Notes: generated by a model from the letters alone, not told the origin. Positions 15,864 through 33,539 are shown, counted from the stretch's first letter. The stretch is DNA of 64,000 bases from Muribaculaceae bacterium (GCA_045637445.1 JAZTZN010000001.1:6693-70692), one strand, 5' to 3'. Numbers and translations: made by a program.

Positions 15864-15892
15864 AAGTATGTTGTTAAAAATACTGACAAATA

Positions 15893-16432
15893 TTATTTCA
15901 CCAAAGAGCGACCCTTTTCGATAGCAGCTTCGTTGAGTGGAATAAGTTTGTGGTGACGTTCAGGAAGAGACTTTTGAAGACCCTTGATAACGTTTTCCAT
16001 AGGCAACTTATAGTCCATTACTTCGAGCAAAGCACCCATGATGACCATGTTGTAAGTCTTAGAGTTACCCATTTCCATGCAAGCACGAGTAGCCTCAACG
16101 CGTACAACGCGAATATCGTCGCGAGTAGGTAGGTTGTTGATACCGTTAGCATCATAGATAAGGATACCACCCTTCTTTACTTTTGGTTCGAATTTGTCGA
16201 GAGATTGTTGGTTGAGCACTACAGCGATGTCGAATGAATCGAGGATAGGTGATGAAATCTTTTCGTCAGAAAGGATCACAGTCACGTTAGCAGTACCACC
16301 ACGTTGTTCAGGACCGTAAGAAGGCATCCAAGTGACTTCTTTGTCGTCCATAAGGCCTGAGTAAGCCAAAATCTTACCCATAGAAAGGACACCCTGTCCT
16401 CCGAAGCCTGCAATGATTATTTCTTCTTTCAT
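15893..16432 (-). CDS. 2-oxoacid:ferredoxin oxidoreductase, gamma subunit
   Basis: N-terminal IIIAGFGGQGVLSMGKILA motif typical of the OFOR gamma subunit. Last gene of the four-gene operon. Confidence 0.85.
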   Translation of the reverse strand: MKEEIIIAGFGGQGVLSMGKILAYSGLMDDKEVTWMPSYGPEQRGGTANVTVILSDEKISSPILDSFDIAVVLNQQSLDKFEPKVKKGGILIYDANGINNLPTRDDIRVVRVEATRACMEMGNSKTYNMVIMGALLEVMDYKLPMENVIKGLQKSLPERHHKLIPLNEAAIEKGRSLVK

Positions 16433-16453
16433 TGTTTTGTCTGTTTTAATGGA

Positions 16454-17215: not shown

Positions 17216-17240
17216 TGATTTCGATTAGGTTAGGGATTAA

Positions 17241-18323
17241 TTATTTGATTAATTTTTCCTGCAATGCTACAAGCACTTCATCCGGGCTTGGGATGATACC
17301 GCCAAGGCGACCGAAGTGTTCAACAGGAAGTGAGTCATGAACAGCAAGACGTACGTCTTCGATCATTTGACCGGCGTTAAGCTCTACGCAGAGAACGCCT
17401 TTCTTGCCTTGAGCTGCTTTTTCGATAGCTGCTGTTGGGAATGGCCAAAGTGTAATCGGACGGAGGATACCCACCTTGATGCCTTTTTCTGCTGCCAATT
17501 CTTTTGCTTTTGTACAGATACGTGCTACTGAACCAAATGCTACGATCAAGTAGTCTGCGCCTTCAACGTCGATTTCTTCCCAACGTGTTTCGTTCTTTTC
17601 GATTTCACGATAGCGAGCTTGGAGACGTTCGTTGATAACTTCCATCTTAGCTGATTCGAGCTCCAAAGAAGTCACTACGTTGCGAGGGCGAAGGTCTTTA
17701 CGGCCGTTAGTAGCCCATGGGCATTGTTTGCGGATTTCTTCTTCTGTACGACGTGGGCGTTGCTCCGGAAGCACTACCTTTTCCATCATCTGACCTACTA
17801 CACCGTCAGCGAGGATCATTGCTGGGTTAGTGTATTTGAATGCCAAGTCGAAACCGAGAGTTACGAAGTCAACCATTTCTTGCACTGTAGAAGGAGCAAG
17901 CACGATCATGTGATAGTCACCATGACCACCGCCCTTACATGATTGGAAATAGTCGGCTTGTGATGGTTGGATTGTACCAAGACCCGGTCCCCCACGAGAT
18001 ACGTTTACGATCAATGCAGGCAATTCTGATGCTGCAATGTATGAAATACCTTCTTGCTTAAGGCTGACACCTGGGCTTGATGATGATGTCATAACAGCTT
18101 TACCTGAAGCAGCTCCACCATATACCATGTTGATCGCTGCAACTTCAGACTCTGCCTGTAACACTACCATACCGGTTGTTTCCCATGGCATTTCCTCTTC
18201 AAGAGTTTCAAGCACCTCTGATTGAGGTGTGATAGGATAACCGAAGTATCCGTCACATCCGTAGCGGATTGCTGCGTGTGCGATAGCTTCGTTACCCTTC
18301 ATTAGTCTAACCTCTTCTTTCAT
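17241..18323 (-). CDS. vorB: 2-oxoacid:ferredoxin oxidoreductase, alpha subunit (VorB/KorA type)
   Basis: MKGNEAIAHAAIRYGCDGYFGYPITPQSE is the classical N-terminus of the OFOR alpha subunit. Substrate specificity (2-ketoisovalerate versus 2-oxoglutarate) cannot be decided by eye. Confidence 0.8.
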   Translation of the reverse strand: MKEEVRLMKGNEAIAHAAIRYGCDGYFGYPITPQSEVLETLEEEMPWETTGMVVLQAESEVAAINMVYGGAASGKAVMTSSSSPGVSLKQEGISYIAASELPALIVNVSRGGPGLGTIQPSQADYFQSCKGGGHGDYHMIVLAPSTVQEMVDFVTLGFDLAFKYTNPAMILADGVVGQMMEKVVLPEQRPRRTEEEIRKQCPWATNGRKDLRPRNVVTSLELESAKMEVINERLQARYREIEKNETRWEEIDVEGADYLIVAFGSVARICTKAKELAAEKGIKVGILRPITLWPFPTAAIEKAAQGKKGVLCVELNAGQMIEDVRLAVHDSLPVEHFGRLGGIIPSPDEVLVALQEKLIK

Positions 18324-18377
18324 ATTCTGTGTTTCTTGTGTTAGCTTGTTAGGTAATTTTGTTGTTAAAAACTTTGT

Positions 18378-18611
18378 TTAATCGTCGATTTTCACGCGAT
18401 AAACTTCGATACATGCGTCAGGACACACCATTGCACATGTTGTACATCCTGTACATGACTCAGGATTTGCCATATAGGCATAGTGATAACCACGGTCATT
18501 GACCTCATTTGGTTGCAATGAGAGAGTGTTTGTGGGGCATGCCACCACGCAAAGGTTACATCCTTTGCATCTCTCAACGTTTACTGTAATTGCTCCTTGT
18601 ATTTTTGCCAT
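18378..18611 (-). CDS. 4Fe-4S dicluster ferredoxin (OFOR delta subunit)
   Basis: Two CxxCxxCxxxCP motifs (CKGCNLCVVACP and CTGCTTCAMVCP) in 77 aa. First gene of the operon. Confidence 0.85.
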   Translation of the reverse strand: MAKIQGAITVNVERCKGCNLCVVACPTNTLSLQPNEVNDRGYHYAYMANPESCTGCTTCAMVCPDACIEVYRVKIDD

Positions 18612-18735
18612 ATTAGAGTTGATTTAATAGATTTGACAAAATTAATACTTTTTTTCAAATAAAAACGAATTATTTCGAGATTTATTTTTTATGTTTAAAA
18701 ACATAAATTTAACATTATGCTGTGTAGCCCATTTA

Positions 18736-19446
18736 TTACTTAGATTTTGCATCCAAAATAGCCATCATTTTTTTCATCCCGACGGTGGCTTTTTCTCTTA
18801 TTATTGTCAGATTTTCCATCATTCCCACGTTGGCAGGGTTAGGATCGATATAATAGATGCTTGTGTCTTTGCGCACACAACGTATCAGCCCAGCCGCCGG
18901 ATAGACCGCCAACGACGTGCCGATCACGACAAACACATCAGCCTCAGCAGCAAGCTGCATCGCCGGAGTGATATTAGGCACAGCCTCATTGAAAAAGACA
19001 ATGTGTGGACGCATCGGATGGCCATTCCTGCCACGACGCTCAGGCGTAGTCTCAATGTCATCGACCGACAACTCCTCTATATAATCCTCATCCTTGACAG
19101 AGCGAATCTTCATCAGCTCGCCATGAAGATGAAGCACATCCTTGGAGCCGGCACGCTCGTGAAGGTCATCGACATTCTGTGTAATCACCTTCACATCAAA
19201 ACGAGGATCCTCCGCAAGCTCGGCAATCAAGCGATGAGCCTCATTAGGCACCACCTCAAGCAACTGACGACGACGCGCATTATAAAACTCATGCACCAAC
19301 GCCGGGTCGGCAGCAAAACCCTCAGCCGAAGCCACCTGCATCACAGGATAGTTTTCCCACAACCCATCAGCGTCGCGAAACGTCTTGACGCCACTCTCGG
19401 CACTCACACCGGCGCCCGTAGAAAACACAATTTTCAACTTCTTCAT
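18736..19446 (-). CDS. cobB: NAD-dependent protein deacylase (Sir2 family)
   Basis: GAGVSAESGVKTFRD, QNVDDLHERAG and the C-terminal VIGTSLAVYPAA are sirtuin hallmarks. Confidence 0.85.
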   Translation of the reverse strand: MKKLKIVFSTGAGVSAESGVKTFRDADGLWENYPVMQVASAEGFAADPALVHEFYNARRRQLLEVVPNEAHRLIAELAEDPRFDVKVITQNVDDLHERAGSKDVLHLHGELMKIRSVKDEDYIEELSVDDIETTPERRGRNGHPMRPHIVFFNEAVPNITPAMQLAAEADVFVVIGTSLAVYPAAGLIRCVRKDTSIYYIDPNPANVGMMENLTIIREKATVGMKKMMAILDAKSK

Positions 19447-19839
19447 ACCATTATCGATTGGTTAAATTTATCTTCTGGGGTTATACTCACCATGAGTATA
19501 TCCACATCCATGCAGTTTGCACCATGCAAAGATACACAATTTTATCGGAGTCTCACAAACTAATCCTATCAATATGAAAAGTTTGAACAGAGACCGCCAC
19601 AAATAGCCACGAAGCATTATTGACTGTGCAAACCGTATAGGCGTAGCAACACATTATTTATAAGAACATTGTCATATATACAGGTATATACTCCACGCCA
19701 TTTTCTCGCTTGTAATCCTTTGTATAAATCACATATCGGTTCATTATTCGGTCGGAATACTTACTGCAAAACTCATCCAACGATCTGCACAACTTATAAG
19801 TCTCTGGTTTTTAGGCAAAAAGCATAACTTTTTCATTTC

Positions 19840-19933
19840 TCCACCAAATTTATTTAGTGCGTTTTGTCAATATCCACCAAATTTATTTAGCCCATTTTGT
19901 CAATATCCACCGAATTTAATAGACCAATTCGCC
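19840..19933. repeat. tandem repeat of a 33-bp unit, 2 full copies plus 1 degenerate copy
   Basis: Copies are tccaccaaatttatttagtgcgttttgtcaata (19840-19872), tccaccaaatttatttagcccattttgtcaata (19873-19905) and tccaccgaatttaatagaccaattcgcc (19906-19933). They are contiguous with no spacers. Confidence 0.85.
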
Positions 19934-20028
19934 TGATTTTTATACCATTAAAACAAAATCTATATCACCTAAAAAGCAACTTTACAAACAATTAAAAACA
20001 GTGGTAAAAAAACGACTCTATTCAATAA

Positions 20029-20095
20029 TATGCTTGCTCTGCATAAAACAACATCCTTTTTATTCGATATACAAAACGAAGAAATAATAGTGAGG
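20029..20095 (+). repeat. left copy of the ~67-bp imperfect direct repeat bracketing the AbiE module
   Basis: tatgcttgctctgcataaaacaacatcctttttattcgatatacaaaacgaagaaataatagtgagg matches 21692-21757 with a few substitutions and one indel. Confidence 0.85.
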
Positions 20096-20199
20096 CAGCT
20101 CGTGATTATACTCACCTTTTGAGATTATTTTAGTAAAAAAATGAACAGAAAAAGAACTCTAAATTCTTTTATTGTTCAAATTTTTACTATTTTTGCAAC

Positions 20200-20826
20200 A
20201 TGAATAGACAATTAAGAGAAATAGGGAGCATTCCAATAACGACTTCTGTTATCGAATCGTTATATCCTGAACTCAAGTCGCCGGATAAGAAGGTCGCATG
20301 GCTTGAGAAGAATGGGTATATTATTCGATTGAAGAGAGGGCTCTATGTTGTCAATCCGGAACATTCGAGTAAAACTCTTTCGAGTGAGCTGATTGCCAAT
20401 CATCTTTATGCACCTTCTTACATCTCGATGTCAACAGCATTGAGATATTATGGGTTGATTCCGGAGGAAGTATATACGCATCAGTCAATGACAATAAAGC
20501 ATTCTCGAAGTTTTCAAACTCCTATAGGAAATTACAATTACAAGTATATTTCCCGAGCAGCTTTCTCTGTCGGAGTAAGAAGTATTCATAAGGAGGAATA
20601 TGCTTTCTTGATTGCATCGCCCGAAAAGGCTTTGTGCGACCTGATAGCAAATTCTTCTAAGGTAAATCTGCGTTTTCTGAAGGATGTTGAGAACTATCTT
20701 GAGCATGATATCCGAATGGATATGGATGAGTTTTATAAGTTTGACTCAACTATTTTTGAAGAGTATATAAAGGTAGGCAAGAAGGCCGACTCTATTGCAA
20801 CACTTTTAAGATTCTTAAGACGATGA
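20200..20826 (+). CDS. type IV toxin-antitoxin / abortive-infection antitoxin AbiEi-family protein
   Basis: N-terminal wHTH-like IESLYPELKSPDKKVAWLEKNGYIIRLKRGLYVV and the C-terminal domain pattern of AbiEi. Overlaps the downstream nucleotidyltransferase gene by 4 nt. A tatttttg box lies at 20188-20195. Confidence 0.75.
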   Translation: MNRQLREIGSIPITTSVIESLYPELKSPDKKVAWLEKNGYIIRLKRGLYVVNPEHSSKTLSSELIANHLYAPSYISMSTALRYYGLIPEEVYTHQSMTIKHSRSFQTPIGNYNYKYISRAAFSVGVRSIHKEEYAFLIASPEKALCDLIANSSKVNLRFLKDVENYLEHDIRMDMDEFYKFDSTIFEEYIKVGKKADSIATLLRFLRR

Positions 20827-21656
20827 AAAATGAAATTTACGATAGCATGTTGTCACGCTACGATCTGACGACAGAGCAGAATAAAAGGAATGCTATTTTT
20901 GAAGTAAACCAACAGATGATTCTTGCCGGTTTGTATAGTGGTGGATTTTTTGAGTCAGCTGCATTCTATGGTGGAACTTGCTTGAGAATCTTTCATGGGT
21001 TGCAACGCTTCAGTGAAGATATGGATTTTTCTCTGCTGACACAAGATGAAGCGTTTGACTTCAGCAAATATTTCCAACCCATTGTTGATGCATTTGCTTT
21101 GGTGGGACGTGAGGTTGAAATCAAGAAGAAAGACAAGAAGAACTTCGGTAAGGTTGAGTCAGCCTTCCTGAAAGACAACACCGATGTGTATGATGTAATG
21201 TTTCAAACAGAGAAGTCTATAAAAATCAAGATTGAAGTTGACACTTGTCCTCCATTGAATTTTAAGACAGAGCAAAAACTATTGCTACAACCACATTCAT
21301 TCATGACTCGTTGCTTTACACTTCCCGACCTGTTTGCCGGCAAGATGCACGCACTTGTATATCGTGCATGGAAAAACAGAGTCAAGGGACGTGACTGGTA
21401 CGATTTTGAGTGGTATGTTCGCCATAATGTACCGCTTGATTTTGCTCATTTGGCTGAAAGATGCCGACAATTCAATAATGAGGAAATCACCCCGGAACTA
21501 TTCAAAGATAAGCTCAAGGAGCGTCTTTCTACTGCGGACATTAAGCAGGTAAAAGAAGATGTCCTACCATTTGTTCGCAATCCTAAGGAGTTGGAAATTT
21601 GGTCAAACGACTATTTTGTTCAATTGGCTGAGATGGTGAAATTGGAATATGTATAG
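20823..21656 (+). CDS. nucleotidyltransferase AbiEii/AbiGii-family toxin
   Basis: FYGGTCLRIFHGLQRFSEDMDFSL (the GG..L...RFSEDxDF nucleotidyltransferase motif) and downstream KxxA...R...GRDWYD motifs typical of AbiEii. Confidence 0.8.
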   Translation: MKNEIYDSMLSRYDLTTEQNKRNAIFEVNQQMILAGLYSGGFFESAAFYGGTCLRIFHGLQRFSEDMDFSLLTQDEAFDFSKYFQPIVDAFALVGREVEIKKKDKKNFGKVESAFLKDNTDVYDVMFQTEKSIKIKIEVDTCPPLNFKTEQKLLLQPHSFMTRCFTLPDLFAGKMHALVYRAWKNRVKGRDWYDFEWYVRHNVPLDFAHLAERCRQFNNEEITPELFKDKLKERLSTADIKQVKEDVLPFVRNPKELEIWSNDYFVQLAEMVKLEYV

Positions 21657-21691
21657 TTTCAATTATGAATTGATTATATTGAAGTAAAACT

Positions 21692-21757
21692 TATGCTTGC
21701 ACTGCATAAAACAACATCTTTTTAGGCGATATACAAAACGAAGAAATAATAGTGAGG
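21692..21757 (+). repeat. right copy of the direct repeat bracketing the AbiE module
   Basis: tatgcttgcactgcataaaacaacatctttttaggcgatatacaaaacgaagaaataatagtgagg; see 20029-20095. Confidence 0.85.
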
Positions 21758-21830
21758 TACTCCCAATCAGCAAGATATTGAGCATACTCAGAAACACTCG
21801 CTGATTGGGAATTTTTCTATACTTTTAAAA

Positions 21831-22154
21831 TTATTTTACGATGCGTTTCGCCACAATGTCAGGCTTTCGAAATTTAGGTGTTTTGGGTGCCGGAATTTTC
21901 TTCATTATGCTACTATCTACACATTGATAGTCAATCACTTCCCCCTCATAAACTCCTTTGGATGTAGTGGCACGCACAGTGCCTGTTCCAGTGAATTTAT
22001 TGTTGATAAACGCGCCTTCATAATAGTCGCCGTTGGGCATTGTGAGCTTACCTTTGCCGTTGAACTTACCGCCGACGATGCCTCCTTCATAGCGCTCACC
22101 ACCCGGGAATGTAATTGACACATAGTATGTAGCAGAGTTTTTGGGTTGCCTCAT
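21831..22154 (-). CDS. small MORN-repeat protein without a signal peptide (possibly a gene remnant)
   Basis: Three to four Y.G....gk..G.G MORN units (GGERYEGGIVGGKFNGKGKLTMPNGDYYEGAFINNKFTGTGT). Divergent from the kinase operon. Confidence 0.55.
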   Translation of the reverse strand: MRQPKNSATYYVSITFPGGERYEGGIVGGKFNGKGKLTMPNGDYYEGAFINNKFTGTGTVRATTSKGVYEGEVIDYQCVDSSIMKKIPAPKTPKFRKPDIVAKRIVK

Positions 22155-22276
22155 AATACTGATTTTTATGAGACAAAATTGGAAAGAGCAATAAGATATA
22201 CATAAGATTGGGATTGTGAATAGATTGGTCTAATAATTTTTAATTCTGTTATATTGTTGGTTTTAAAAACTTTAGT

Positions 22277-22284
22277 TACCTTTG
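22277..22284 (+). promoter_or_regulatory. candidate -7 box (TACCTTTG) for the kinase operon
   Basis: TAnnTTTG match about 200 nt upstream of the kinase ATG. It would imply a long leader. This is a motif match only. Confidence 0.3.
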
Positions 22285-22484
22285 TTGCACAAGAGTTATT
22301 TGAAAGTGTCAGTTAATGCAAACCGAAGAAATTAGTATTATTCAAAAAGGTCGCAAAACGAGGTCTAATATTAATTCTGCAAACGATAACATCAAATAGA
22401 AAAATATTAAAGGAAGAACCCTAAAGCTAATGAATTAATTAATCCGGGAATTTTTAGAAGTTTCCCAAATAATAAATTTAGGAT

Positions 22485-24365
22485 ATGGCATTTTTAGAGG
22501 AATATACATTGCTTGATGAGCTGGGACAGGGTGGATATGCCACAGTCTATAAGGTGCGTCACAACCATTTGGGCTACATACGTGCCATACGTGTTTTGAA
22601 CGCCACCATAGCTCATGGCGAAGAGGATAAAACATATCAGAAATTTTTGCGCGAATGTCGTTTGCTGTTGCGTCTTGGCAATGGCAATCATCCTAATATT
22701 GTGCATATCTATCAGCCGCTGCTTAAGGCTCAAAAAGCGATTGTGGAGATGGATTATGTCGATGGCATGGACTTATTCCATTTTATAAAGGAGCAAAAAG
22801 GTTTTGTGCCTACTGAAGATGTGCTTCATCTCTTGACAGGCATCGGTAGTGCTTTGGCATATTGCCACAAGGACATCTACAAATTCTGCATGGATAAAGA
22901 GGAAGATAACCTCAAAGACGACCCTAACGACGGCACAAAAGTGTTGCTCGACACCAAAACCATTGAGCGATTGATAGATAAATATCGCGTTATCCACAAC
23001 GACATCCATTCCGGCAATATCATACGTCGCGAGGATGGCAATTTTGTGTTGTTAGATTTCGGGTTGGCTATCGAGGGCAACGACGTCGTTCGCAGCAGTA
23101 GAAAAAGAAACGGTGCGCCGGAGTTTAAAGCGCCGGAGAAGTGGGACAACGAAAGTCTGCTTACGACACAATCGGATATTTACAGCTTTGGTGTAGTGCT
23201 ATACGAATATATCACCGGCAGAGTTCCTTTCCAATTTGACAAGAAAAATTCCAATCCGAGCGAGGCAGAATATCTTCTTGGCAAAGCCCATAAGGAGCAG
23301 CAGCCACCGTCAATCTTCGAGCTTCGCAAGGAAGCTTTCGAGAAGGCTCATCCGGGAGCAACCTACGAAAAAGACTATCCCGACTGGCTTGAAAAAGTCG
23401 TTATGCGTTGTCTTGCAAAATCGCCTGCCGAGCGTTTTAAGGACGGCAAAGAATTGCACGACTTTGTCATGGAGAGCATCAAAGCCGACTCTGACACAAA
23501 AGTCGCAAACATGCGAGAAGAGATAGCACAATTGCAAAACAAACTCAGCGCAATCCAAAGCGAACAGCAGGCTAAAAGCAAAGAAGAGACAGAGCAAGTG
23601 GCTGCGATGAAAAGACAAGTAGAGGATGCCGAATGGCGTGTTGCCGAGTTTGTGGATAAGGAGCGCTTATTGAAGGAAGAAATCGAGCGTCTGAAGGGGC
23701 TGTTGAATAATAATGCTCCGGCGGTTGATGCCGAGCAAGTCGCAAACATGAAAGCAGAAATCCGACGTCTTGAGACGGAATTAAGCACAGTGGTCTCTAA
23801 GCACGTCGATGCCAACAATAAATTGTCTCAGTTGGAGAAAGAAAACGCCAAGCTCAAAACGGTAGCTCCGGGTGCAAAACCGAGTGGAATATGGAAAATT
23901 CTTGCTTTGATATTCTTGTTGACCACCGGTGGAGCTTTGATGATGTGGTATAATTCGAAGGATGCTTCAGCAGAGCCTATCGTTGTCGATACAATTTCCG
24001 TCACTATGGACGACGGCACTAATAAGGCTTTTTCAGCATCAGATGTGAAGAAACTTTTGAATGACAAAAATTCGCTTGCTCAAAGCCTTGCCAACTCGCA
24101 AGCGGCAAGTTCGTCAGACGATAGCGAGGCACTTAAACGCCTCAATGCGCAAATCGGTCAGAAGGATTCTCTCATAAATGAGTTGAACAAGACTATCGAA
24201 GAATTAAGACAGCAGTCGTCTGCCGGCAATGACAATTCGCAAAGCATAATCAACCGTAAGGACAAAGAAATCAGCCAGCTTAATTCGACAATCAAATCTT
24301 TGCGCAATCAAATTAAAGAAAAAGAAAAAGAAATCGGACTCTTAAAAAAAGAATTTGTAAGATAA
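22485..24365 (+). CDS. membrane-anchored Hanks-type Ser/Thr protein kinase with coiled-coil regions
   Basis: Kinase subdomains are readable: G-loop LGQGGYATVY, HPNIV, catalytic loop VIHNDIHSGN, LLDFGLA, GAPEFKAPE, DIYSFGVVLYEYITGRVPF. A heptad-rich segment follows, then one TM helix (IWKILALIFLLTTGGALMMWY, about 23888-23950) and a ~140-aa Ser/Gln/Lys-rich coiled-coil tail. Confidence 0.9.
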   Translation: MAFLEEYTLLDELGQGGYATVYKVRHNHLGYIRAIRVLNATIAHGEEDKTYQKFLRECRLLLRLGNGNHPNIVHIYQPLLKAQKAIVEMDYVDGMDLFHFIKEQKGFVPTEDVLHLLTGIGSALAYCHKDIYKFCMDKEEDNLKDDPNDGTKVLLDTKTIERLIDKYRVIHNDIHSGNIIRREDGNFVLLDFGLAIEGNDVVRSSRKRNGAPEFKAPEKWDNESLLTTQSDIYSFGVVLYEYITGRVPFQFDKKNSNPSEAEYLLGKAHKEQQPPSIFELRKEAFEKAHPGATYEKDYPDWLEKVVMRCLAKSPAERFKDGKELHDFVMESIKADSDTKVANMREEIAQLQNKLSAIQSEQQAKSKEETEQVAAMKRQVEDAEWRVAEFVDKERLLKEEIERLKGLLNNNAPAVDAEQVANMKAEIRRLETELSTVVSKHVDANNKLSQLEKENAKLKTVAPGAKPSGIWKILALIFLLTTGGALMMWYNSKDASAEPIVVDTISVTMDDGTNKAFSASDVKKLLNDKNSLAQSLANSQAASSSDDSEALKRLNAQIGQKDSLINELNKTIEELRQQSSAGNDNSQSIINRKDKEISQLNSTIKSLRNQIKEKEKEIGLLKKEFVR

Positions 24366-24366
24366 T

Positions 24367-25248
24367 ATGGGATTTTTTGATAAAATAGCAAAGCTCATCA
24401 ATGGCTCTTCGGCAGAGGAAACACCGAAGGCAGAGTGGCAATCAAAGTCTGAAGCATCAAAGGTTGAGACTGAAGAAACGCCGAAAGCGACAGTAAGCGA
24501 AAAGGCAACAAACAGTATCGACAAGCAAGACAATTTGCTCAGAGCCGTTATTCAATGTCTGAAGTCAAACTATGGCGGCAGCAAAATTTCTATGGCTGAC
24601 AAAACATTGGCATTGTGGATAACCGATGGCTTGTTCTACGACTTATTGTCGAGCAATAATTTCAAAAATCAACTGATGACATCGATAGTCGATGAGCTTG
24701 GTCTTGATTTTTCATCGATTGAAATCATGACAGGGCGATTGCCAGAAGAATCTCTGACGCCGATAGCCGATGGTTGTTTTTTGCAAATTAAAGCAAAGCA
24801 AGTCGTGCAGTCGATTTCGCGAGCTGAGATTCTGCAGGTGGAAGGCTTTGGCTCAATGCAGGATGCAAGTGTCTGCCTTGATTCGCAAGAGATAGTCTCC
24901 TTGCCATACGCACGCTATAATATCGGGATCGGTCGTCGTCCGAAGATGGATGACAACACACATCGCATCAATCAAATAGCTATCGACGACAGTCCGACAT
25001 CGGAAGAATATCATAAGAATAAATTTGTCAGTCGTGCTCATGCGTTCATATCTTATTCTGAGGAATATGGATTTTTGTTGAATGTAGAGCATGGCGGGTC
25101 GCGTATGGCAAAAAAACGCACCCACATCTATCGTGGCATAGAGAAAATAGAGCTTGACAATGTGCTTATTCCGGTGCCTTTGCGCGACGGCGACTATATA
25201 GTCTTGAGTAAAAATGTTCATCTATTATTCAAAAAAGCAAAAGCATGA
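24367..25248 (+). CDS. FHA-domain protein (FhaA-like layout: N-terminal domain of unknown function plus C-terminal FHA)
   Basis: The C-terminal FHA signature is YNIGIGRRP...INQIAIDD....VSRAHAFISYSEEYGFLLNV......THIYRG. The N-terminus MGFFDKIAKLING resembles FhaA/DUF3662-type starts. Begins 1 nt after the kinase stop. Confidence 0.8.
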   Translation: MGFFDKIAKLINGSSAEETPKAEWQSKSEASKVETEETPKATVSEKATNSIDKQDNLLRAVIQCLKSNYGGSKISMADKTLALWITDGLFYDLLSSNNFKNQLMTSIVDELGLDFSSIEIMTGRLPEESLTPIADGCFLQIKAKQVVQSISRAEILQVEGFGSMQDASVCLDSQEIVSLPYARYNIGIGRRPKMDDNTHRINQIAIDDSPTSEEYHKNKFVSRAHAFISYSEEYGFLLNVEHGGSRMAKKRTHIYRGIEKIELDNVLIPVPLRDGDYIVLSKNVHLLFKKAKA

Positions 25249-26216
25249 TAAAGAAAGCAGTAACAAAAATATTGGATATATTCAAGCCGGAAGGCAACAA
25301 CACAGGGGCAGCCAACGATAGGCTGACCAATAAGCGCCTGCTTGAAGAGTTGAAGTCGCATTTCAAAAGCGTGCTTGATGTGGAATCGGTGGGCAACAGA
25401 ATGCTCTATCCGATGTCGTTCAATATTCTGATGGAATCTTCCGACTACAACGATCGCAAACAATCGTTGCCATTCATTTTGCCGCAGGTGGTCGCTGCTT
25501 TCTATGGCATCATCGAAGAAAATAAAAAGGAATTTTCCGACTTTACCCCGCCGGCGAAATATTGGTTTTTCCAATTCTCGGCTTGCAACGTAGGGAGCAT
25601 CCCGACTGATAGTTCGACGCCACTTATAGTGCGCAAAGGACACATCACTACGGTGGCAAACCTTTTGACATTCGACATCAAAAAGGCTTCGAATGTCAGC
25701 GTCGATTCAAATGTCAGAGTTTCAATCAAACTCGATGATTCTGATGTGATGAATGATGTCAACGTCAACCTTGGAGCGATACAAAATCTCGACATCCTCA
25801 GCGAAGGAACGTTTATCTATAACTTTGACAACACGTTAAATCGCGATACTCGTCACATCGAAGAAAACTCAAATATGGCTGAGACATACGGCTTGGCAGA
25901 ACTTTCCTATTCGCGTGACGGCAAAAACTATCGTTTCTCGATGAAGGACAATCTTATTCACATTTCCGGCAAGAACGAAATGCGAGAAGGGCGTGCATTC
26001 TTCATCTTGGAAAATGCCGACATCAAGGACTCTCACGTTCAAATCAAATATGTGCCGACAGAAAAGAGATTTCAAATTGCAGCATTCGGCCCGACGAGAC
26101 TCAATAGCCGCCTGCTTGCCGAGAGTAGCGGAGGCGATGTGATGTGGTATGATTTGGCAAACAATTCAAGCATTTTTATCAACGAAGAGATAAGAGTGAA
26201 ATTTGAGATTAAATAA
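25245..26216 (+). CDS. second FHA-like protein (divergent FHA at the C-terminus, DUF3662-like N-terminal region)
   Basis: The start overlaps the upstream stop (ATGA). N-terminal GNRMLYPMSFNILMESSDYNDRK resembles the FhaA N-domain segment (LL.PN.Y.I.L...DF). The C-terminal HISGKNE..RAFFILENADIKDSHVQIKY....FQIAAFGPTRLNSRLL follows the FHA G-R/S-x-x-H/N-G spacing only loosely. Confidence 0.6.
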   Translation: MIKKAVTKILDIFKPEGNNTGAANDRLTNKRLLEELKSHFKSVLDVESVGNRMLYPMSFNILMESSDYNDRKQSLPFILPQVVAAFYGIIEENKKEFSDFTPPAKYWFFQFSACNVGSIPTDSSTPLIVRKGHITTVANLLTFDIKKASNVSVDSNVRVSIKLDDSDVMNDVNVNLGAIQNLDILSEGTFIYNFDNTLNRDTRHIEENSNMAETYGLAELSYSRDGKNYRFSMKDNLIHISGKNEMREGRAFFILENADIKDSHVQIKYVPTEKRFQIAAFGPTRLNSRLLAESSGGDVMWYDLANNSSIFINEEIRVKFEIK

Positions 26217-26220
26217 GTTT

Positions 26221-27300
26221 ATGATTATGAAGACGATACATTTTTTTGGAAAAACAGATATGGGCAGAAAGCGTACAAACAACGAGGATGCCTTTATCGC
26301 TCAAAATATTTGGGATGAGAAACACATCCTTGCTGTGGCTATCGACGGCGTCGGAGGTTATGAGGGTGGAGAAGTGGCTGCTGAATTGGCTCAAAAAAAC
26401 ATTGTCAAATACCTCGAAACGTATCCCAACGGTGAACGCCTCGACTTGCTTAAACAGGCTGTAATCTTTGCCAACAATGCCATTTTCGACGAGAGAAAAC
26501 AATCGGCCAATCTTTGTAGCATGAGTTGCGTTTTGACAGCGGCTCTTATCGAGGTGGAGAGCCGGCGCATAAACATGGCGCATGTGGGCGACACTCGTCT
26601 TTATCAATATGTCGATGGCGTTTTGACGAAACTTTCCCACGACCACTCTCTCATCGGCTATCGCGAAGAAATCGGCGAACTCTCGGAGGAAGAAGCAATG
26701 AATCATCCTCAGCGAAACATCATCGGGCGTGACGTGGGTTCTACTCGCTTGGAAAGCAACGCCAACGACTATGTGGAAGTCGCTTCATTCCCTCTTGAGG
26801 CTCATTCATCGTTGATGCTATGCTCCGACGGTCTTTGCGATATGATTACTTCGCAACAAATGAAATCTATCCTTGACGAAAATTTGCCGACAGAAAAGAA
26901 AGTCGATGCTCTGATTGAGGCTGCCAACATTGCAGGAGGTAAGGACAATGTCACTGTGGTGCTCGTGGAGTGCAACCTGCCTGAATTGCCTCGCAAAAAA
27001 ATAATAGAAACAGAAACCCATCCTACCGAAATAAGAAAAAAGTCAACGGTAGAAACGAAAAAGAAATCTTCACTCGGTCGGTATCTGATTATTATCGGTG
27101 TCGCATTGTTGGGCTTTATCGGAGGATATTTGCTCAATAGTTACAACGCTTATAAAATGCAACTTGAAACCTCTGAATCAATAGTTGTACGCGACACTGC
27201 CATAATCAAATTGAAAAAGGAAAGATCGGAGCTTTCCAAGCATATTAAAGAATTGGAATTGCGCATCGATTCGCTTCAAAACGCCAACAGCAACAAATAA
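26221..27300 (+). CDS. PP2C-family Ser/Thr phosphatase with a C-terminal TM anchor and coiled-coil tail
   Basis: Motifs GKTDMGRKRTNNEDAF, AIDGVGGYEGGEVAA, VGDTRLY, LCSDGLCD and GGKDNVTVVLVE. TM helix LGRYLIIIGVALLGFIGGYLL at about 27073-27140. The track start at 26203 is a TTG, so I use the ATG at 26221. Confidence 0.9.
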   Translation: MIMKTIHFFGKTDMGRKRTNNEDAFIAQNIWDEKHILAVAIDGVGGYEGGEVAAELAQKNIVKYLETYPNGERLDLLKQAVIFANNAIFDERKQSANLCSMSCVLTAALIEVESRRINMAHVGDTRLYQYVDGVLTKLSHDHSLIGYREEIGELSEEEAMNHPQRNIIGRDVGSTRLESNANDYVEVASFPLEAHSSLMLCSDGLCDMITSQQMKSILDENLPTEKKVDALIEAANIAGGKDNVTVVLVECNLPELPRKKIIETETHPTEIRKKSTVETKKKSSLGRYLIIIGVALLGFIGGYLLNSYNAYKMQLETSESIVVRDTAIIKLKKERSELSKHIKELELRIDSLQNANSNK

Positions 27301-27312
27301 TAATCATACGCC

Positions 27313-28818
27313 ATGAAAAAACTCATAACACTGCTAATCGCAATACTTTCCGTCGCCGGCATCTACGCCGACAACTATAATGAATATCTTGAGGCTTCGC
27401 GCAAGCATCTCGCCGAGGGAAACAAGGAGAAAGCCGAGAGCTGCTATCGCATATATACGAATATGACTGGCAAAAAAGATGCAGAGCTTGAAAAAGCTTT
27501 TTACGGCTCGGCGCAGTCAGGCAATGTCGGCAGCATGACGATCAATTACCCTAACGGCGACCATTATGAGGGCGAAACCAAAGACGGCAAGCGTCATGGC
27601 AAAGGCACAATGATTTATTCGAATGGCGATCGCTATGAGGGTGAGTGGAAAGACGACCAAAAGCATGGGCAAGGTGTCGAAACGTGGCCTGACGGCTATA
27701 GGTATGAGGGAGAGTTTAAAGATAACAGATGTAATGGTCAAGGCACAGAGACTTGGCCAAGTGGCGATAAGTATGTCGGACAATTTAAAGACTATCGCTA
27801 CAATGGTCAAGGCACAATGTTTTATGCCGACAACCGATTATATGTCGGCGAGTGGAAAGACGGCAAAAAGCATGGCTACGGAGTCCTGACTCATAAAAAT
27901 GGCGATCAATACGAAGGCTACTTTGTCAATGATAAGTATAATGGCAAAGGGACCTACTATAACAACAATGGCGACCGCTATGTCGGCGAGTGGAAAGACG
28001 ACGTACTGCATGGAGTGTGTACAGTCTATTACAAGAACGGCACACACTCGACGGCGATGTGGGAAAATGGAAAAAAGACACGTGAATTGCCTAACGACGT
28101 AGTGGCAGAGAGCAATGTGGAAATTCGAACCATTAATTACGATAACGGCGACAAATATGTAGGCGAAATCAAAGACGGCAAACGCAATGGTCAAGGAATA
28201 TATTATTTCGCTAATGGCAACCGCTATGAGGGTCAATGGAAGGACGGCAAACTCCATGGCAAAGGCACTTATTATTTTGTTTCCGGCAATCGCTATGAAG
28301 GCGAATTCAAGGACGGCAAACGTCAAGGCAAAGGCACTTATTATTTTGCTAATGGTAATCGCTATGAAGGCGAATGGCAGGACGACAAACGCCATGGACA
28401 AGGCACTTGTTATTATGCTGATGGTGACAGCTATGAAGGCAAATGGCAGGACGACAAACGCCATGGACAAGGCACTCTTTATTTTGCTTCCGGTAACCGC
28501 TATGAAGGCGAATTCAAGGACGACAAATATAACGGTCAAGGCACTTTTTATTGGGCTGATGGTGACAGCTATGAAGGCAAATGGCAGGACGACAAACGCC
28601 ATGGACAAGGCACTCTTTATTTTGCTGATGGCGACCGCTATGAAGGCGAATTCAAGGACGACAAATACAATGGACAAGGCACTCTTTATTTTGCTTCCGG
28701 TAACCGCTATGAAGGCGAATTCAAGGACGACAAACGCCATGGACAAGGCACTATGTACTTTAAGGATGGCACATCGAAGTCCGGTCGTTGGGACATGGGA
28801 GTCTTTGTCGGGGAATAA
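27313..28818 (+). CDS. secreted MORN-repeat protein (~19 MORN units) with a helical N-terminal module
   Basis: Signal peptide MKKLITLLIAILSVAGIYA, a ~45-aa helical module (NYNEYLEASRKHLAEGNKEKAESCYRIYTNMTGKKDAELEKAF), then repeated YEGE(W/F)KD(G/D)K.HGQGT units. Starts 12 nt after the PP2C stop. Confidence 0.9.
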   Translation: MKKLITLLIAILSVAGIYADNYNEYLEASRKHLAEGNKEKAESCYRIYTNMTGKKDAELEKAFYGSAQSGNVGSMTINYPNGDHYEGETKDGKRHGKGTMIYSNGDRYEGEWKDDQKHGQGVETWPDGYRYEGEFKDNRCNGQGTETWPSGDKYVGQFKDYRYNGQGTMFYADNRLYVGEWKDGKKHGYGVLTHKNGDQYEGYFVNDKYNGKGTYYNNNGDRYVGEWKDDVLHGVCTVYYKNGTHSTAMWENGKKTRELPNDVVAESNVEIRTINYDNGDKYVGEIKDGKRNGQGIYYFANGNRYEGQWKDGKLHGKGTYYFVSGNRYEGEFKDGKRQGKGTYYFANGNRYEGEWQDDKRHGQGTCYYADGDSYEGKWQDDKRHGQGTLYFASGNRYEGEFKDDKYNGQGTFYWADGDSYEGKWQDDKRHGQGTLYFADGDRYEGEFKDDKYNGQGTLYFASGNRYEGEFKDDKRHGQGTMYFKDGTSKSGRWDMGVFVGE

Positions 28819-28832
28819 CAAAATTACATACG

Positions 28833-28866
28833 CTTCTATGAGGTGATAAATTTAATCTCATAGAAG
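28833..28866 (+). terminator. candidate hairpin terminator after the MORN gene
   Basis: 10-bp stem cttctatgag (28833-28842) pairs with ctcatagaag (28857-28866) across a 14-nt loop. There is no clean U-run immediately after. Confidence 0.4.
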
Positions 28867-29065: not shown

Positions 29066-30418
29066 ATGAGTGTTACGATAAAATCAGTCGATATGAGATT
29101 TTTTGATAGAGAAACAGAGTTTGAAAAGCTAAGAGAAATAGAAGAATTGTCTCACAATGTGGCACAGTTCACGATTATCACCGGAAGACGTCGCATTGGT
29201 AAGACAGAAATGGTCAAGAAGTTTTTTGAGGGTAAGACCATTCTTTATTTTTTTGTAGCCCGTAAGGCGGAAGCAGATCTATGTAATGTCTTTGTTGACG
29301 AAATTCGTACAAAGCTCAATATCCCAATGCTTGATAGTAAAGGAATGTCGTTTGCTACGATATTCAAATTCGTAATGGAGCTGTCGTTGACTCGGCAAAT
29401 CACACTTTTTATTGATGAGTTTCAGGACTTCTTTAGGGTGAACCCTTCTATCTATTCTGATATGCAGAATATATGGGATAACTATAAAAACAAGGCTCAT
29501 ATTAATCTAATCGTGGCAGGCTCGGTAAATGTCTTGATGAATAAGATATTTAAGGATAGTAAGCAGCCTCTATTTGGTAGGCAGACAGATACAATTCATG
29601 TCCGACCATTTAAACCATCGGTTTTAAAAGAAATAATGTCGGAATATTGTCCGGGCTACAAAAAGTCTGACTTGTTGGCTCTCTATACTCTGACCGGTGG
29701 TGTGGCTAAATATGTCGAATTATTCATCGATAAGAAAAAGTTTACCGAGAAAAAGATGTTGGATATGTTTTTTAGTCAAGATTCTTACTTTTTGTCAGAG
29801 GGTAAGAATATGCTTGTGGATGAATTTGGTAGAGATTATGGTATCTATTTCTCGATATTGACTCTTATAGCCCAAGGCAGAAATACACGCTCAGAACTGG
29901 AGGATACTCTTAATATAAAAGAATTGTCGGGCTACTTAAAAAATCTAAGTGTTGAATATGGCTTGATAAGAAAGATGCAGCCAATTTATGAAAAGTCATC
30001 AAATAAGAATGTTCATTACACCATTGACGACCGGTTTTTGAGTTTTTGGTTCAGATTTGTATATAAATATACTCATATTATTGAGGCTGGTGGTAATGAG
30101 AAGTTGAAAACATTGGCAGAGCGAGATTTTGCAACAATCAGTGGAAAATCTCTTGAAAGCTACTTCGTTGAGGTGCTGAAAGAGTCGGGCTGTTTTACTT
30201 GTCTTGGATATTGGCATGACCGTAAAGGAGAGAATGAGATAGACATTATTGCTGAAGACGAAATCGACAAGAAGATAGAGTTTATCGAAGTGAAGAGACA
30301 AGCAAAGAATTTCGATGAGCAAATACTAAAGAAAAAAGCAGAGTTATTCTTTAAGGCTGTTGGTTCGTTCAATGGTTTTGCAATTACTTACAGAGGTCTT
30401 TCAATGCAGGATATGTAA
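29066..30418 (+). CDS. ATP-binding protein (archaeal-type AAA ATPase with a DUF234-like C-terminus)
   Basis: FFDRETEFEKLREI... followed by Walker A ITGRRRIGKTEMV and Walker B LFIDEFQ. The C-terminal segment EIDIIAEDEIDKKIEFIEVKR is typical of DUF234. The start could alternatively be the ATG at 29093. Confidence 0.8.
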   Translation: MSVTIKSVDMRFFDRETEFEKLREIEELSHNVAQFTIITGRRRIGKTEMVKKFFEGKTILYFFVARKAEADLCNVFVDEIRTKLNIPMLDSKGMSFATIFKFVMELSLTRQITLFIDEFQDFFRVNPSIYSDMQNIWDNYKNKAHINLIVAGSVNVLMNKIFKDSKQPLFGRQTDTIHVRPFKPSVLKEIMSEYCPGYKKSDLLALYTLTGGVAKYVELFIDKKKFTEKKMLDMFFSQDSYFLSEGKNMLVDEFGRDYGIYFSILTLIAQGRNTRSELEDTLNIKELSGYLKNLSVEYGLIRKMQPIYEKSSNKNVHYTIDDRFLSFWFRFVYKYTHIIEAGGNEKLKTLAERDFATISGKSLESYFVEVLKESGCFTCLGYWHDRKGENEIDIIAEDEIDKKIEFIEVKRQAKNFDEQILKKKAELFFKAVGSFNGFAITYRGLSMQDM

Positions 30419-30512: not shown

Positions 30513-31538
30513 ATGAAAAAGTATTTGTTTTTGATGATGATATTGCTTTCGGCAGCGAGCATTTCAGCCGACAACTATAATGAATATCTTGAGGCATCAC
30601 GCAAGCATCTCGCCGAGGGAAACAAGGAGAAAGCCGAGAGCTGCTATCGCATATATACGAATATGACTGGCAAAAAAGATGCAGAGCTTGAAAAAGCCTT
30701 TTCGAGCAAAGCACAGTCAAGCAATGTTGAATATAAAATAATAATGACCGTAGAATATGAAAATGGCGATGTCTATGAAGGAGAAGAAAAGGACGGCATA
30801 CGTCATGGAATAGGCAGATATTATCACGCAGATGGGGCTATTTACGAAGGCGAATGGAAAGATGATCTTATTCATGGAATAGGCAGATACTATTATCCTG
30901 ATGGCACTGCTGAAAATGTAGTATGCGAAAATGGGAAAATTGTAGGTTCTACTAAAGAGACCTTGCCACAAAGTGAAATCAGAATACATAGTATAGGCTA
31001 TGACAATGATTATCTATATCATGGAAACATGAAAGACGGCAAACGCAACGGTCGAGGCACAATGCATTATGCCGACAGACGTAAATATGTCGGCGAGTGG
31101 AAAGACGATAAATGGCATGGCAAAGGAACATATTATTTTGTTTCCGGCGACCGCTATGTCGGCGAATTCAAGGACGGCAAACGCCAAGGCAAAGGCACAT
31201 ATTATTGGGCTGATGGCGGTCGCTATGAGGGCGAATGGCAGGACGGCAAACGCAGCGGTCAAGGCACACATTATTATGCTGATGGACGTAAATATGTCGG
31301 ACAATGGTTGGACGACAAATACAATGGTCAAGGAACATATTATTTTGCAAATGGCGATCGCTATGAGGGTCAATGGAAGGATGACAAACGTCATGGACAA
31401 GGCGCATATTTCTGGGCTGATGGACGTAAATATGTCGGTCAATGGGCGGATGATAAAATTCATGGACAAGGCACAATGTACTATAAGAATGTCATGACAA
31501 AGTCCGGCCGTTGGGATATGGGTAAATTTGTGGAATAA
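30513..31538 (+). CDS. secreted MORN-repeat protein, paralogue sharing the N-terminal module of 27313-28818
   Basis: Signal peptide MKKYLFLMMILLSAASISA, an identical NYNEYLEASRKHLAEGNKEKAESCYRIYTNMTGKKDAELEKAF module, then about 11 MORN units. Confidence 0.9.
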   Translation: MKKYLFLMMILLSAASISADNYNEYLEASRKHLAEGNKEKAESCYRIYTNMTGKKDAELEKAFSSKAQSSNVEYKIIMTVEYENGDVYEGEEKDGIRHGIGRYYHADGAIYEGEWKDDLIHGIGRYYYPDGTAENVVCENGKIVGSTKETLPQSEIRIHSIGYDNDYLYHGNMKDGKRNGRGTMHYADRRKYVGEWKDDKWHGKGTYYFVSGDRYVGEFKDGKRQGKGTYYWADGGRYEGEWQDGKRSGQGTHYYADGRKYVGQWLDDKYNGQGTYYFANGDRYEGQWKDDKRHGQGAYFWADGRKYVGQWADDKIHGQGTMYYKNVMTKSGRWDMGKFVE

Positions 31539-31883: not shown

Positions 31884-32003
31884 GTGGGCGAGCGAAATAT
31901 ATGTGCCACTAAAACGTTATATAGAAAATGATAAGGACTTTTATGATTTGCTTGCAGTGGTTTGCGAATTTTTAAAAGTCCTGATAATAAACGGATTATT
32001 GAT

Positions 32004-33539
32004 ATGGAAAGAATTCTTTGGGCAGACGACGAGATAGATCTATTAAAACCTCATATCCTTTTCCTTAAGCAAAAAGGATACGATGTGGCGACAGTCTCCA
32101 ACGGCAGAGATGCACTCGATGCTTTGGAAAATGAGCAGTTTTCTTTAATATTGCTCGATGAGAATATGCCCGGACTTTCCGGCTTGGAAACACTGACGCT
32201 TATCCACCAGTCGCATCCGCAGATTCCGGTAATCATGATTACCAAATCGGAAGAGGAAAACATTATGAATCAGGCTATTGGCAATAAAATTGCCGATTAT
32301 CTCATTAAGCCTGTCAACCCAAACCAAATCTTGCTTTCCATAAAGAAAAATCTGCATGGCGGCGAAATTGTGGCAAAAACCGTAAGTTCGGATTATCAGC
32401 AAGAGTTTCAGAAGATTTCGATGCAAATCAATATGGCACAATCGATTGACGACTGGTATGAAGTCTATCGCTCGTTGGTGTTTTGGGAATTGAAATTAGC
32501 ACAGACAGATACAAATATGGATGAGCTCCTTTCACTCCAAAAACGCGATGCAAATGTCGGTTTCTGCAAATTTGTAAAGCGCGAATATGAGGATTGGGTG
32601 ACTACAGAGTCTCATCCGCTGATGAGTCACGAGATTTTCAAACGTCGCGTCTTTCCGGAATTAGATAAAGGAGAGAAAGTGTTTGTCATTCTAATCGATA
32701 ATTTCAGATACGACCAATGGAAGGTGATACAGCCGATAGTCTCGGAATTTTTCAATATCAATGAAGAACTGTACACCACTATTTTGCCGACATCGACACA
32801 ATATGCCCGCAACTCAATATTTGCCGGCTTGATGCCTCTCGACATAGCTAAAATGTTTCCCGACCTATGGGTTGAAGAAGACGAAGACGAGGGTAAAAAC
32901 ATCTATGAAGAGGAGCTTATTCGCAGTCAGCTAAATCGTTTTCGCCGCAAAGAAAAGTTCTCTTACCACAAAATCAACGATTCGGCAGGTGTCGATAAGC
33001 TGTTGGTCAAGTTAAAACAAATTGACAACAACGAGTTGAATGTCGTGGTGCTGAACTTCATCGATATGCTCTCGCATGCGCGTACCGAGTCGAAAATGAT
33101 TCGTGAGCTTGCTAATTCGGATGCCGCTTATCGTTCGCTGACTGAGTCGTGGTTTCGCCACTCGTCGGCTCACGACCTCTTCCGTTGCCTGTCGGAAAAG
33201 AAATATAAAGTCATCGTGACCACTGACCATGGGACAATACGTGTCGATAATCCGATAAAGGTGGTAGGCGATAAAAACACCAACACCAACCTTCGTTATA
33301 AGGTGGGTAAAAGCTTGAACTACAATCGTAAAGAGGTCTATGAAATGACCAATCCGAAGCGATTTGGTCTGCCGGCGCCTAACCTTTCCAGCACATTCAT
33401 CTACGCAATGAACGAGGACTTCTTCTCCTATCCTAACAACTACAACTATTATGTCGGCTACTACACAGGCACATTCCAGCATGGTGGCATCTCACTCCAA
33501 GAAATGATAGTGCCATTGGTAACTCTCAACCCCAAATAA
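32004..33539 (+). CDS. porX: response regulator with a CheY receiver plus PglZ/alkaline-phosphatase-like domain (PorX type)
   Basis: Receiver domain ILWADDEIDLL...LILLDENMPGLSG...MITK, followed by a PglZ-type domain (VILIDNFRYDQW, TDHG). The architecture and ~510-aa length match PorX. The track start at 31962 is non-ATG, so I use the ATG at 32004. Confidence 0.8.
   Translation: MERILWADDEIDLLKPHILFLKQKGYDVATVSNGRDALDALENEQFSLILLDENMPGLSGLETLTLIHQSHPQIPVIMITKSEEENIMNQAIGNKIADYLIKPVNPNQILLSIKKNLHGGEIVAKTVSSDYQQEFQKISMQINMAQSIDDWYEVYRSLVFWELKLAQTDTNMDELLSLQKRDANVGFCKFVKREYEDWVTTESHPLMSHEIFKRRVFPELDKGEKVFVILIDNFRYDQWKVIQPIVSEFFNINEELYTTILPTSTQYARNSIFAGLMPLDIAKMFPDLWVEEDEDEGKNIYEEELIRSQLNRFRRKEKFSYHKINDSAGVDKLLVKLKQIDNNELNVVVLNFIDMLSHARTESKMIRELANSDAAYRSLTESWFRHSSAHDLFRCLSEKKYKVIVTTDHGTIRVDNPIKVVGDKNTNTNLRYKVGKSLNYNRKEVYEMTNPKRFGLPAPNLSSTFIYAMNEDFFSYPNNYNYYVGYYTGTFQHGGISLQEMIVPLVTLNPK

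Follow-up and report, generated by a model that had tools for sequence, protein, structure and literature searches.

The window, the whole 64,000-nt stretch from a Muribaculaceae bacterium that was analysed here on one strand (GCA_045637445.1, JAZTZN010000001.1:6693-70692), carries between positions 22485 and 28818 a cassette of five open reading frames (ORFs), all on the plus strand and separated by spacers of 1, -4, 4 and 12 nt. The genes are referred to in their order as the kinase, g2, g3, the PP2C and the fifth (MORN) gene; an earlier reading made from the sequence only had described them as a co-directional operon, and both the coordinates and the operon-like packing were confirmed. The five genes are as follows.

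22485 to 24365, plus strand: single-pass membrane Hanks-type kinase, 626 aa, Pfam Pkinase at 5e-37, with a transmembrane (TM) helix.
24367 to 25248, plus strand: g2, predicted cytoplasmic FHA-fold protein, 293 aa, called from a weak Pfam FHA match, a structural model with a predicted local distance difference test (pLDDT) value of 78.7, and Foldseek.
25245 to 26216, plus strand: g3, predicted cytoplasmic FhaA-like protein, 323 aa, called from a structural model with a pLDDT of 73.8, Foldseek and a weak FhaA_N match.
26221 to 27300, plus strand: single-pass membrane PP2C, 359 aa from the ATG, with an alternative TTG start at 26203, Pfam PP2C_2 at 3.5e-15.
27313 to 28818, plus strand: secreted MORN protein, 501 aa, Pfam MORN at 3.6e-112 with 15 repeats, with a signal peptide and a hairpin of about 45 aa.

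The Pkinase, PP2C and MORN assignments made earlier are thus borne out by Pfam, and a hydropathy scan, by which all TM segments were called, gave the predicted topology of one TM helix each for the kinase and the PP2C and a signal-like N-terminal segment for the MORN protein. The kinase is composed of a kinase domain at about 1-320 (window 22485-23500), which includes a conserved 37-aa insert ahead of the catalytic loop, a coiled-coil-like region at 330-465, the TM segment at 469-487 and a 139-aa extracytoplasmic tail. No PASTA domain was matched in it by Pfam or NCBIfam, and the NCBIfam model PknB_PASTA_kin scored 139 bits against a cut-off of 450, with the match confined to the kinase domain. 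The residues of 15 kinase orthologues were aligned with a PknB ruler sequence. In this alignment the Lys of the beta3 'VAIK' motif is replaced by Arg (YIRAIRVL) in 15/15 orthologues, and the catalytic loop reads HNDIHSGN instead of HRDxKxxN, the loop Lys being replaced by His in all 15 as well. No variation is seen in the Gly loop, alphaC Glu, catalytic Asp and Asn, DFG or APE. The pattern suggests a kinase with retained nucleotide binding and unusual chemistry.

The same two substitutions also speak for a different explanation, namely that the protein is a pseudokinase that serves as a scaffold, with phosphorylation supplied by another kinase or with FHA interactions that are independent of phosphorylation. 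KSR-type scaffolds and the MviN pseudokinase-FhaA pair are examples of such arrangements. The conserved Gly loop, alphaC Glu, catalytic Asp and Asn, DFG and APE speak against it, as they suggest that catalysis is retained along with nucleotide binding, and so does the PP2C, which appears catalytically intact and is always co-encoded. The FHA domains described below bear on this explanation from both sides, and overall it is considered improbable.

The proteins g2 and g3 are alike in layout, each with a helix at the N-terminus, then disordered sequence and an alpha/beta domain, and an FHA domain at the C-terminus. In g2 a short N-terminal helix and a variable, disordered linker rich in K, E, T and P accompany an alpha/beta domain at about 50-160 and an FHA domain at about 165-293; in g3 a short N-terminal helix is followed by an alpha/beta domain at about 29-140, a disordered linker at 144-186 (pLDDT below 50) and an FHA fold at 186-323. 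The earlier claim of two FHA proteins holds at the level of the fold and of family-wide weak matches to PF00498, while the Pfam default threshold is reached by neither g2 nor g3. For g2 the match to PF00498 has an E-value of 0.011, or 0.0023 for the C-terminal half, with 16.6-18.8 bits against a gathering cut-off of 20.7, and 27 of the 28 family members match it weakly at E<=1 (best 2.8e-4). No Pfam FHA match was found for g3 itself, and 4/41 members of its family have one (best 2.8e-5). The structural models are more telling: the top Foldseek matches of the g2 AlphaFold model are the FHA domains 1uht (3.9e-3), 3hx1 and 1mzk, and the g3 model has 43 Foldseek matches in the PDB at E<1e-3, of which the listed ones are all FHA domains and include Rv0020c/FhaA (2lc1) and GarA, with target-normalised template modelling scores of at most 0.82. 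When PDB sequences were searched with g2 and g3 profiles, nothing significant was returned.

The phosphothreonine-binding motif set of FHA domains consists of GR, SxxH and NG (PMC1262709). In g2, G189 is invariant, R/K190 is present in 21/28 members and S222-R223-x-H225 is invariant, with no NG; in g3, G242 is found in 29/41, R/K243 in 19/41, H264 in 38/41 and N287 in 35/41 members, and the canonical Ser position is not conserved. The incomplete motif set of both domains is in favour of the pseudokinase explanation, whereas the G-R/K and invariant S-R-x-H kept by g2 count against it.

The N-terminal domain of g3 shows a moderate resemblance to FhaA_N (PF12401, formerly DUF3662): the Pfam model was matched weakly by 9/41 diverse members of the family, with a best value of 0.0019, and hhalign of the g3 N-terminal profile against an alignment of mycobacterial FhaA_N gave P=1.9e-4 over 125 columns at a probability of 47%. 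The hhalign comparison of the g2 family with the g3 family was not significant, although the predicted order of secondary-structure elements is similar, and g2 and g3 are therefore not claimed as paralogues. Both families are uncharacterised and occur in uncultured Bacteroidales, with metagenome-assembled genomes of Bacteroidaceae, Muribaculaceae, Paludibacteraceae and Candidatus Caccoplasma among the sources; homologues of g2 form 86 clusters at 90% identity, those of g3 form 257 clusters at 90% identity and 262 representatives at 50% identity. One g2 homologue, P0001, is 99% identical to g2, and its contig begins inside the kinase gene. Exact-protein look-ups with the window's g2, kinase and 107-aa ORF returned no record. 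No g3 relatives were found in the viral contigs of IMG/VR, and a viral or mobile origin of the cassette was rejected on this ground.

The PP2C is laid out with a catalytic domain at 1-250, a TM segment at 289-307 and a 52-aa extracytoplasmic tail. It matches the NCBIfam model of the Stp1/IreP type at 6.7e-58, below the model cut-off, and the metal-binding motifs RTNNED, DGVGG, GDTR and DN can be read off its translation.

The partner of these genes became apparent from related loci. Fifteen distinct lineages were compared, with g3 identities to the window from 97% down to 22%, and 14 of them had enough flanking DNA. In 14/14 of these, the cluster of g2, g3 and PP2C contains a gene of about 1,460-1,530 aa in which a SEDS domain (FTSW_RODA_SPOVE) is fused to a Transpeptidase domain of a class B penicillin-binding protein (PBP), and the kinase is present too in 13 of the 14. 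The fusion is found also in relatives with 92-97% g3 identity, and it occupies different places in four gene orders: mostly upstream of the kinase, between the kinase and g2 in L020, and downstream of the PP2C in L022 and L023. In the closest relatives (L011 and L024-29, g3 identity 97%) the stop codon of the synthase lies 12 nt ahead of the kinase ATG. The persistence of the linkage across g3 identities of 22-97% and across four gene orders argues for a functional rather than an accidental association. The sequence-only reading had taken the genes as a stand-alone kinase/FHA/PP2C/MORN module and had named in advance, as a result that would speak against this, a constant linkage to cell-division or type VI secretion system (T6SS) genes elsewhere; the linkage to the SEDS-transpeptidase fusion in every lineage with enough flank is of that kind, and the stand-alone module is not supported.

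The fusion scores far under the equivalog cut-offs of FtsW, RodA and SpoVE (131 vs 337 bits) and by its sequence looks like an accessory synthase, not a housekeeping one. All of the fusions carry about 330 extra N-terminal residues, made up, in the L011 gene (2763-7235) and its orthologues, of an additional TM segment and a region of about 310 aa without a family match, and no pedestal domain was matched by Pfam in the fused SEDS-PBP. Kinase-less is the most distant lineage, L005, in which g2, g3, the PP2C and the synthase occur with no kinase gene close by; at that locus a second, small PP2C (988-1671) and a 1,142-aa protein without a family match (1932-5360) were observed instead. Several lineages outside the window's clade add, after the cassette, an M50B-like membrane protein, a protein of about 240 aa and a TIGR02688 BrxL-like ATPase (L001 15760-18647, and also in L012, L013, L015 and L021), none of which follows the cassette in the window's clade; the ATPase scores 343 bits, above the TIGR02688 cut-off. 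Other linked genes belong to non-defence contexts, for example NadA and ClpXP.

The window itself has no SEDS or PBP gene and no trace of the synthase anywhere in its 64 kb, and on that scope the earlier statement that such genes are missing is correct. The absence is due to a rearrangement beside the kinase start codon, at which the following features are found.

21831 to 22154, minus strand: 107-codon MORN-repeat ORF, which is what is left of the 3' end of a 666-aa secreted MORN-type gene and does not belong to the cassette.
22128 to 22200, no strand: rearrangement junction, with the AbiE block and the truncated 666-aa gene to the left and the cassette upstream region to the right.
22201 to 22292, plus strand: promoter-like element, with a TTG-type -33 box and TACCTTTG at 22277-22284, 80% identical over 92 nt to L007 4710-4797.

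DNA synteny of the window with L011, L007 and L009 begins at 22467-22482 (at 22467-22471 with the closest relatives), about 18 nt ahead of the kinase ATG. On the other side, L032 and L033 have the AbiEii of the window unchanged and, behind it on the minus strand, the 666-aa gene in complete form, and their DNA homology with the window (94-97%) ends at 22127; the MORN ORF at 21831-22154, earlier regarded as an upstream flanking partner of the operon, is accordingly the truncated end of an unrelated gene. Metagenome contigs were probed with junction 30-mers, the first of which found none and the second of which led to an independent contig, L037, which matches window 22128-28345 at 97.3% identity. 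On the left side of 22128, L037 has 147 nt and then window 8853-8686, window 22127 not being next. The boundary 22127/22128 is common to the window and L037, and since L037 keeps the same junction, the lack of the synthase at this locus is genuine and does not stem from an assembly error in the window alone. The 13.3-kb block of window 8854-22127 is not in L037; besides the AbiEi/AbiEii pair and the cut-off 666-aa gene, it contains Sir2, a 2-oxoacid:ferredoxin oxidoreductase operon and two ORFs of about 1000 aa, one of which carries a GLUG motif.

The promoter-like element corresponds in L007 to the region between the stop codon of the SEDS-PBP gene and an inserted AAA_14 gene. The Bacteroides -7 promoter motif is TAnnTTTG, and TACCTTTG at 22277-22284 fits it, which explains why the region first noted starts at 22277. 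On this basis 22201-22292 is a putative promoter of the cassette. A sigma-70 promoter and terminator scan showed no terminator enrichment, the sigma-70 model not being meaningful for Bacteroidales.

A cassette that has lost its conserved partner, in a locus heavily rearranged and invaded by mobile and defence-type genes, could be an orphaned remnant without function that is heading for decay. All five ORFs are intact, however, the promoter-like element upstream is conserved, and a second assembly at 97% identity keeps the synthase-less arrangement, so that it has persisted. Pairwise dN/dS values of the four core genes are 0.06-0.25 and are no higher in pairs with the window than in pairs without it, with no excess of dN on the window branch, which points to purifying selection on the cassette genes and gives no sign of decay. 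An orphaned remnant is thus regarded as very unlikely, the least probable of the explanations weighed.

The fifth gene differs from the four core genes in its variability. Downstream of the PP2C, 1-4 secreted proteins per lineage are encoded, all of which have a signal peptide and then a helical hairpin of about 45 aa with the pattern 'NY..YL..A..HL..GN.EKA...Y..Y..MTGK.D.ELE', and whose C-terminal parts match MORN, Lcl_C or TPR or are without a family match. By these sequence features the fifth gene is a family of secreted proteins with a common N-terminal hairpin and variable C-termini, MORN being the form in the window's clade; the MORN gene had earlier been put forward as a co-conserved member of the module, and is instead one variant of a variable secreted fifth gene. 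At 501 aa the MORN protein is longer than its orthologues (337-360 aa), and its coding sequence contains a tandem array at 28156-28752 with a 69-nt unit repeated 8.7 times and a 207-nt unit repeated 2.8 times, which suggests that the array was recently expanded in the window. Farther downstream lie two more genes.

29066 to 30418, strand not specified: ATPase_2/DUF234 ATPase, which matches PADLOC PDC-S27 (1.4e-47) and splits the MORN paralogues.
30513 to 31538, plus strand: paralogous secreted MORN protein, 341 aa, MORN at 1.9e-56, with the same N-terminal hairpin module.

With the third MORN gene of L007 the paralogue shares 71% identity, and in L007 and L024 the MORN genes are contiguous, with no ATPase between them. 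A second MORN-coding tandem array of the 69-nt unit, with a higher-order unit of 138 nt, is located at 31035-31475 and likewise suggests recent expansion. Several related contigs stop inside these genes, and the tandem arrays probably cause the assembly breaks.

Of the neighbours listed earlier, AbiEi/AbiEii, the AAA-type ATPases, KilA-N and HipA were confirmed. The AbiEi/AbiEii pair at 20200-21656 matches PADLOC at 7.7e-76 and 5.4e-116; its AbiEii protein recurs unchanged in other assemblies, with at least 4 different downstream contexts (L030-L035). AAA_14/DUF4143 ATPase genes are recurrent insertions, with one at window 33584-34930 on the minus strand and one at L007 4878-6086, the latter exactly between the synthase and the kinase and behind a promoter-like element as at window 22201-22292. 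A 525-aa protein with a receiver and a PglZ domain is encoded at window 31962-33539, and L007 has a 99% identical copy downstream of its cassette. The PglZ domain was considered as a possible connection to BREX and this was rejected, as the receiver plus PglZ architecture is instead that of what we take to be a PorX-type regulator. A KilA-N protein and a HipA-family kinase toxin lie farther downstream, at window 35241-37903, and give the stretch more of a mobile or defence character. A repeat of about 200-280 nt is shared between window 4594-4866, window 60212-60421 and L007 16543-16827 at 85-89% identity and may be an intergenic or mobile repetitive element.

Such surroundings had led to the proposal of an envelope-stress or phage-sensing phospho-switch that stands alone, with the tails and the MORN protein sensing, the FHA proteins relaying and no synthase involved. 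It draws on the cassette being intact without an adjacent synthase in the window and L037 and under apparent purifying selection; on the neighbouring AbiE, PDC-S27-like ATPase, KilA-N and HipA; on the matches of the kinase to the PD-T4-6 and MADS6 kinase profiles; and on the BrxL-like ATPase in some related loci. The kinase matches nevertheless represent generic kinase-domain similarity (MAD6, 119 bits against a cut-off of 460), and in PADLOC-DB 2.0 no model matched g2, the PP2C or either MORN protein, the kinase matched generic kinase models only, and g3 had one marginal match (Type II specificity subunit, E 0.003). With no convincing PADLOC matches, the cassette was rejected as a known anti-phage system, in agreement with the sequence-only reading. 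The defence-type neighbours are window-specific insertions, L037 being without the AbiE block and L007 and L024 without the ATPase that splits the MORN genes; since the ATPase and AbiE block insertions are lineage-specific, the defence-island look comes from insertions. In addition, the cassette is linked to the SEDS-PBP fusion, amid non-defence genes, in all of the 14 other lineages, and g3 relatives are missing from the viral contigs searched. The proposal is not supported by these results, and we give it little credence.

The reading that we favour, and that we hold to be probable, is that the four core genes make up a Ser/Thr phospho-signalling cassette conserved in Bacteroidales, whose genomic partner is the giant SEDS-class B PBP synthase, and that a rearrangement unlinked the two in the window. 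By analogy, the two inner-membrane enzymes, kinase and PP2C, each with a short tail in the periplasm, would set the phosphorylation of membrane-proximal targets; the two FHA proteins would dock on the phosphorylated sites and tune the accessory peptidoglycan synthase; and the output would be the activity or the placement of that synthase. The secreted hairpin proteins encoded after the PP2C are probable periplasmic partners or ligand adaptors for the tails. In the window the cassette remains intact behind its promoter-like element, and as the synthase is unlinked while the cassette is apparently under selection, the cassette is presumed to work in trans on a synthase encoded at another place, or else on different targets.

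Several points weigh against this reading. The synthase is absent from the 64-kb window, and the kinase, in which Arg stands for the beta3 Lys and His for the Lys of the catalytic loop in all orthologues, could have little activity or none. The FHA domain of g3 appears to be without the canonical phosphothreonine-binding Ser and that of g2 without the NG motif, the link of g3 to FhaA_N is a moderate one resting on the hhalign probability of 47%, and for the N-terminal domain of g2 hhalign gave no significant match either to FhaA_N or to the g3 family. The reading also does not account for the BrxL-like ATPase and the M50B-like protein of some related loci.

Among known systems the closest is the actinobacterial fhaA-fhaB-pstP-rodA-pbpA-pknA-pknB locus (M. 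tuberculosis Rv0014c-Rv0020c) (PMC6554272), of which FhaA functions in cell-envelope biogenesis (bioRxiv 10.1101/2024.08.13.607006), and by analogy of composition the cassette is its Bacteroidales counterpart. Shared are a membrane Hanks kinase, a PP2C with one TM segment, two FHA proteins and, in the window's relatives only, a SEDS protein and a class B PBP; g3 resembles FhaA in its disordered linker and C-terminal FHA domain, with a fold that matches Rv0020c (2lc1), and more tentatively in its FhaA_N-like domain. The Bacteroidales version differs in that SEDS and PBP are fused into one protein with the extra N-terminal region, in that its one kinase has no PASTA repeats and carries Arg in place of the catalytic Lys, in that g2 is without the TM segment of FhaB/FipA, and in that secreted hairpin-module proteins are added; the host is Gram-negative and the synthase is absent from the window. 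In another member of the Bacteroidota, Pedobacter ginsengisoli, a 1,341-aa SEDS-SEDS-transpeptidase chimera flanked by Ser/Thr kinase and phosphatase genes was described in 2025 as a novel phenomenon, and its gene coexists with canonical FtsW/FtsI and RodA/MrdA pairs (PMC12516126). Compared with it by description, the Bacteroidales fusions are likewise giant SEDS-transpeptidase proteins without a recognisable pedestal and with a kinase/phosphatase flank, but the chimera has two tandem glycosyltransferase domains, whereas the fusions have one SEDS domain after the N-terminal region of about 330 aa. In a term search of PMC12516126, neither FHA nor any secreted partner protein came up.

The PpkA-PppA-Fha1 branch of T6SS also encodes a membrane Hanks kinase, a PP2C and an FHA protein together, but the cassette has two FHA proteins, each with an N-terminal alpha/beta domain, and is not linked to T6SS. 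In the parts of the window scanned on either side of the cassette (about 17-20 kb and 29-40 kb) no ORF was a T6SS gene, and none was listed among the genes and Pfam families of the related loci; with no such genes linked the cassette was rejected as a T6SS regulator. Adjacent kinase and PP2C genes, sometimes membrane-anchored, are likewise known from the TerY-P triad and the vWA/PP2C/kinase conflict systems (PMC7159879); the cassette is without vWA, GTPase and MoxR components and has FHA proteins and a peptidoglycan synthase as conserved partners instead, and as a TerY-P/vWA triad it was rejected for want of a vWA component. The literature search turned up no paper that characterises a Bacteroidales cluster of this make-up, in line with what the sequence-only reading had supposed.

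A bolder construction, to which we assign a small probability, is a self-sufficient envelope-surveillance device, more than the regulator of one synthase, made of an atypical kinase or pseudokinase with Arg for the catalytic Lys, two divergent FhaA-like readers and a family of secreted hairpin proteins with swappable MORN, TPR or Lcl_C heads. If true, it would recruit the fused SEDS-PBP in most lineages, sometimes together with the M50B-like protease and the BrxL-like ATPase, for repair or remodelling of the wall after attack, and it would have been rewired here to work without a linked synthase.

Of the features of the locus, the two of greatest interest are the unusual kinase and the natural separation of cassette and synthase. 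As the comparison with related loci cautions, absence at one locus is no ground for calling a module novel. The regulation of peptidoglycan synthases through Ser/Thr kinases, PP2Cs and FHA proteins is seen mainly as an actinobacterial and Firmicute theme, and the cluster represents a structurally distinct version of it in uncultured gut and rumen Bacteroidales, marked by the fused SEDS-PBP, a kinase that has Arg for the catalytic Lys and no PASTA repeats, two FhaA-like readers and interchangeable periplasmic partners. It offers an entry point to the regulation of accessory cell-wall synthesis in Gram-negative anaerobes, to the question of whether FhaA_N-type domains are older than Actinobacteria, and to the activity of an Arg-for-Lys Hanks kinase, and the window provides a natural uncoupling experiment in which the signalling half survives without an adjacent synthase.

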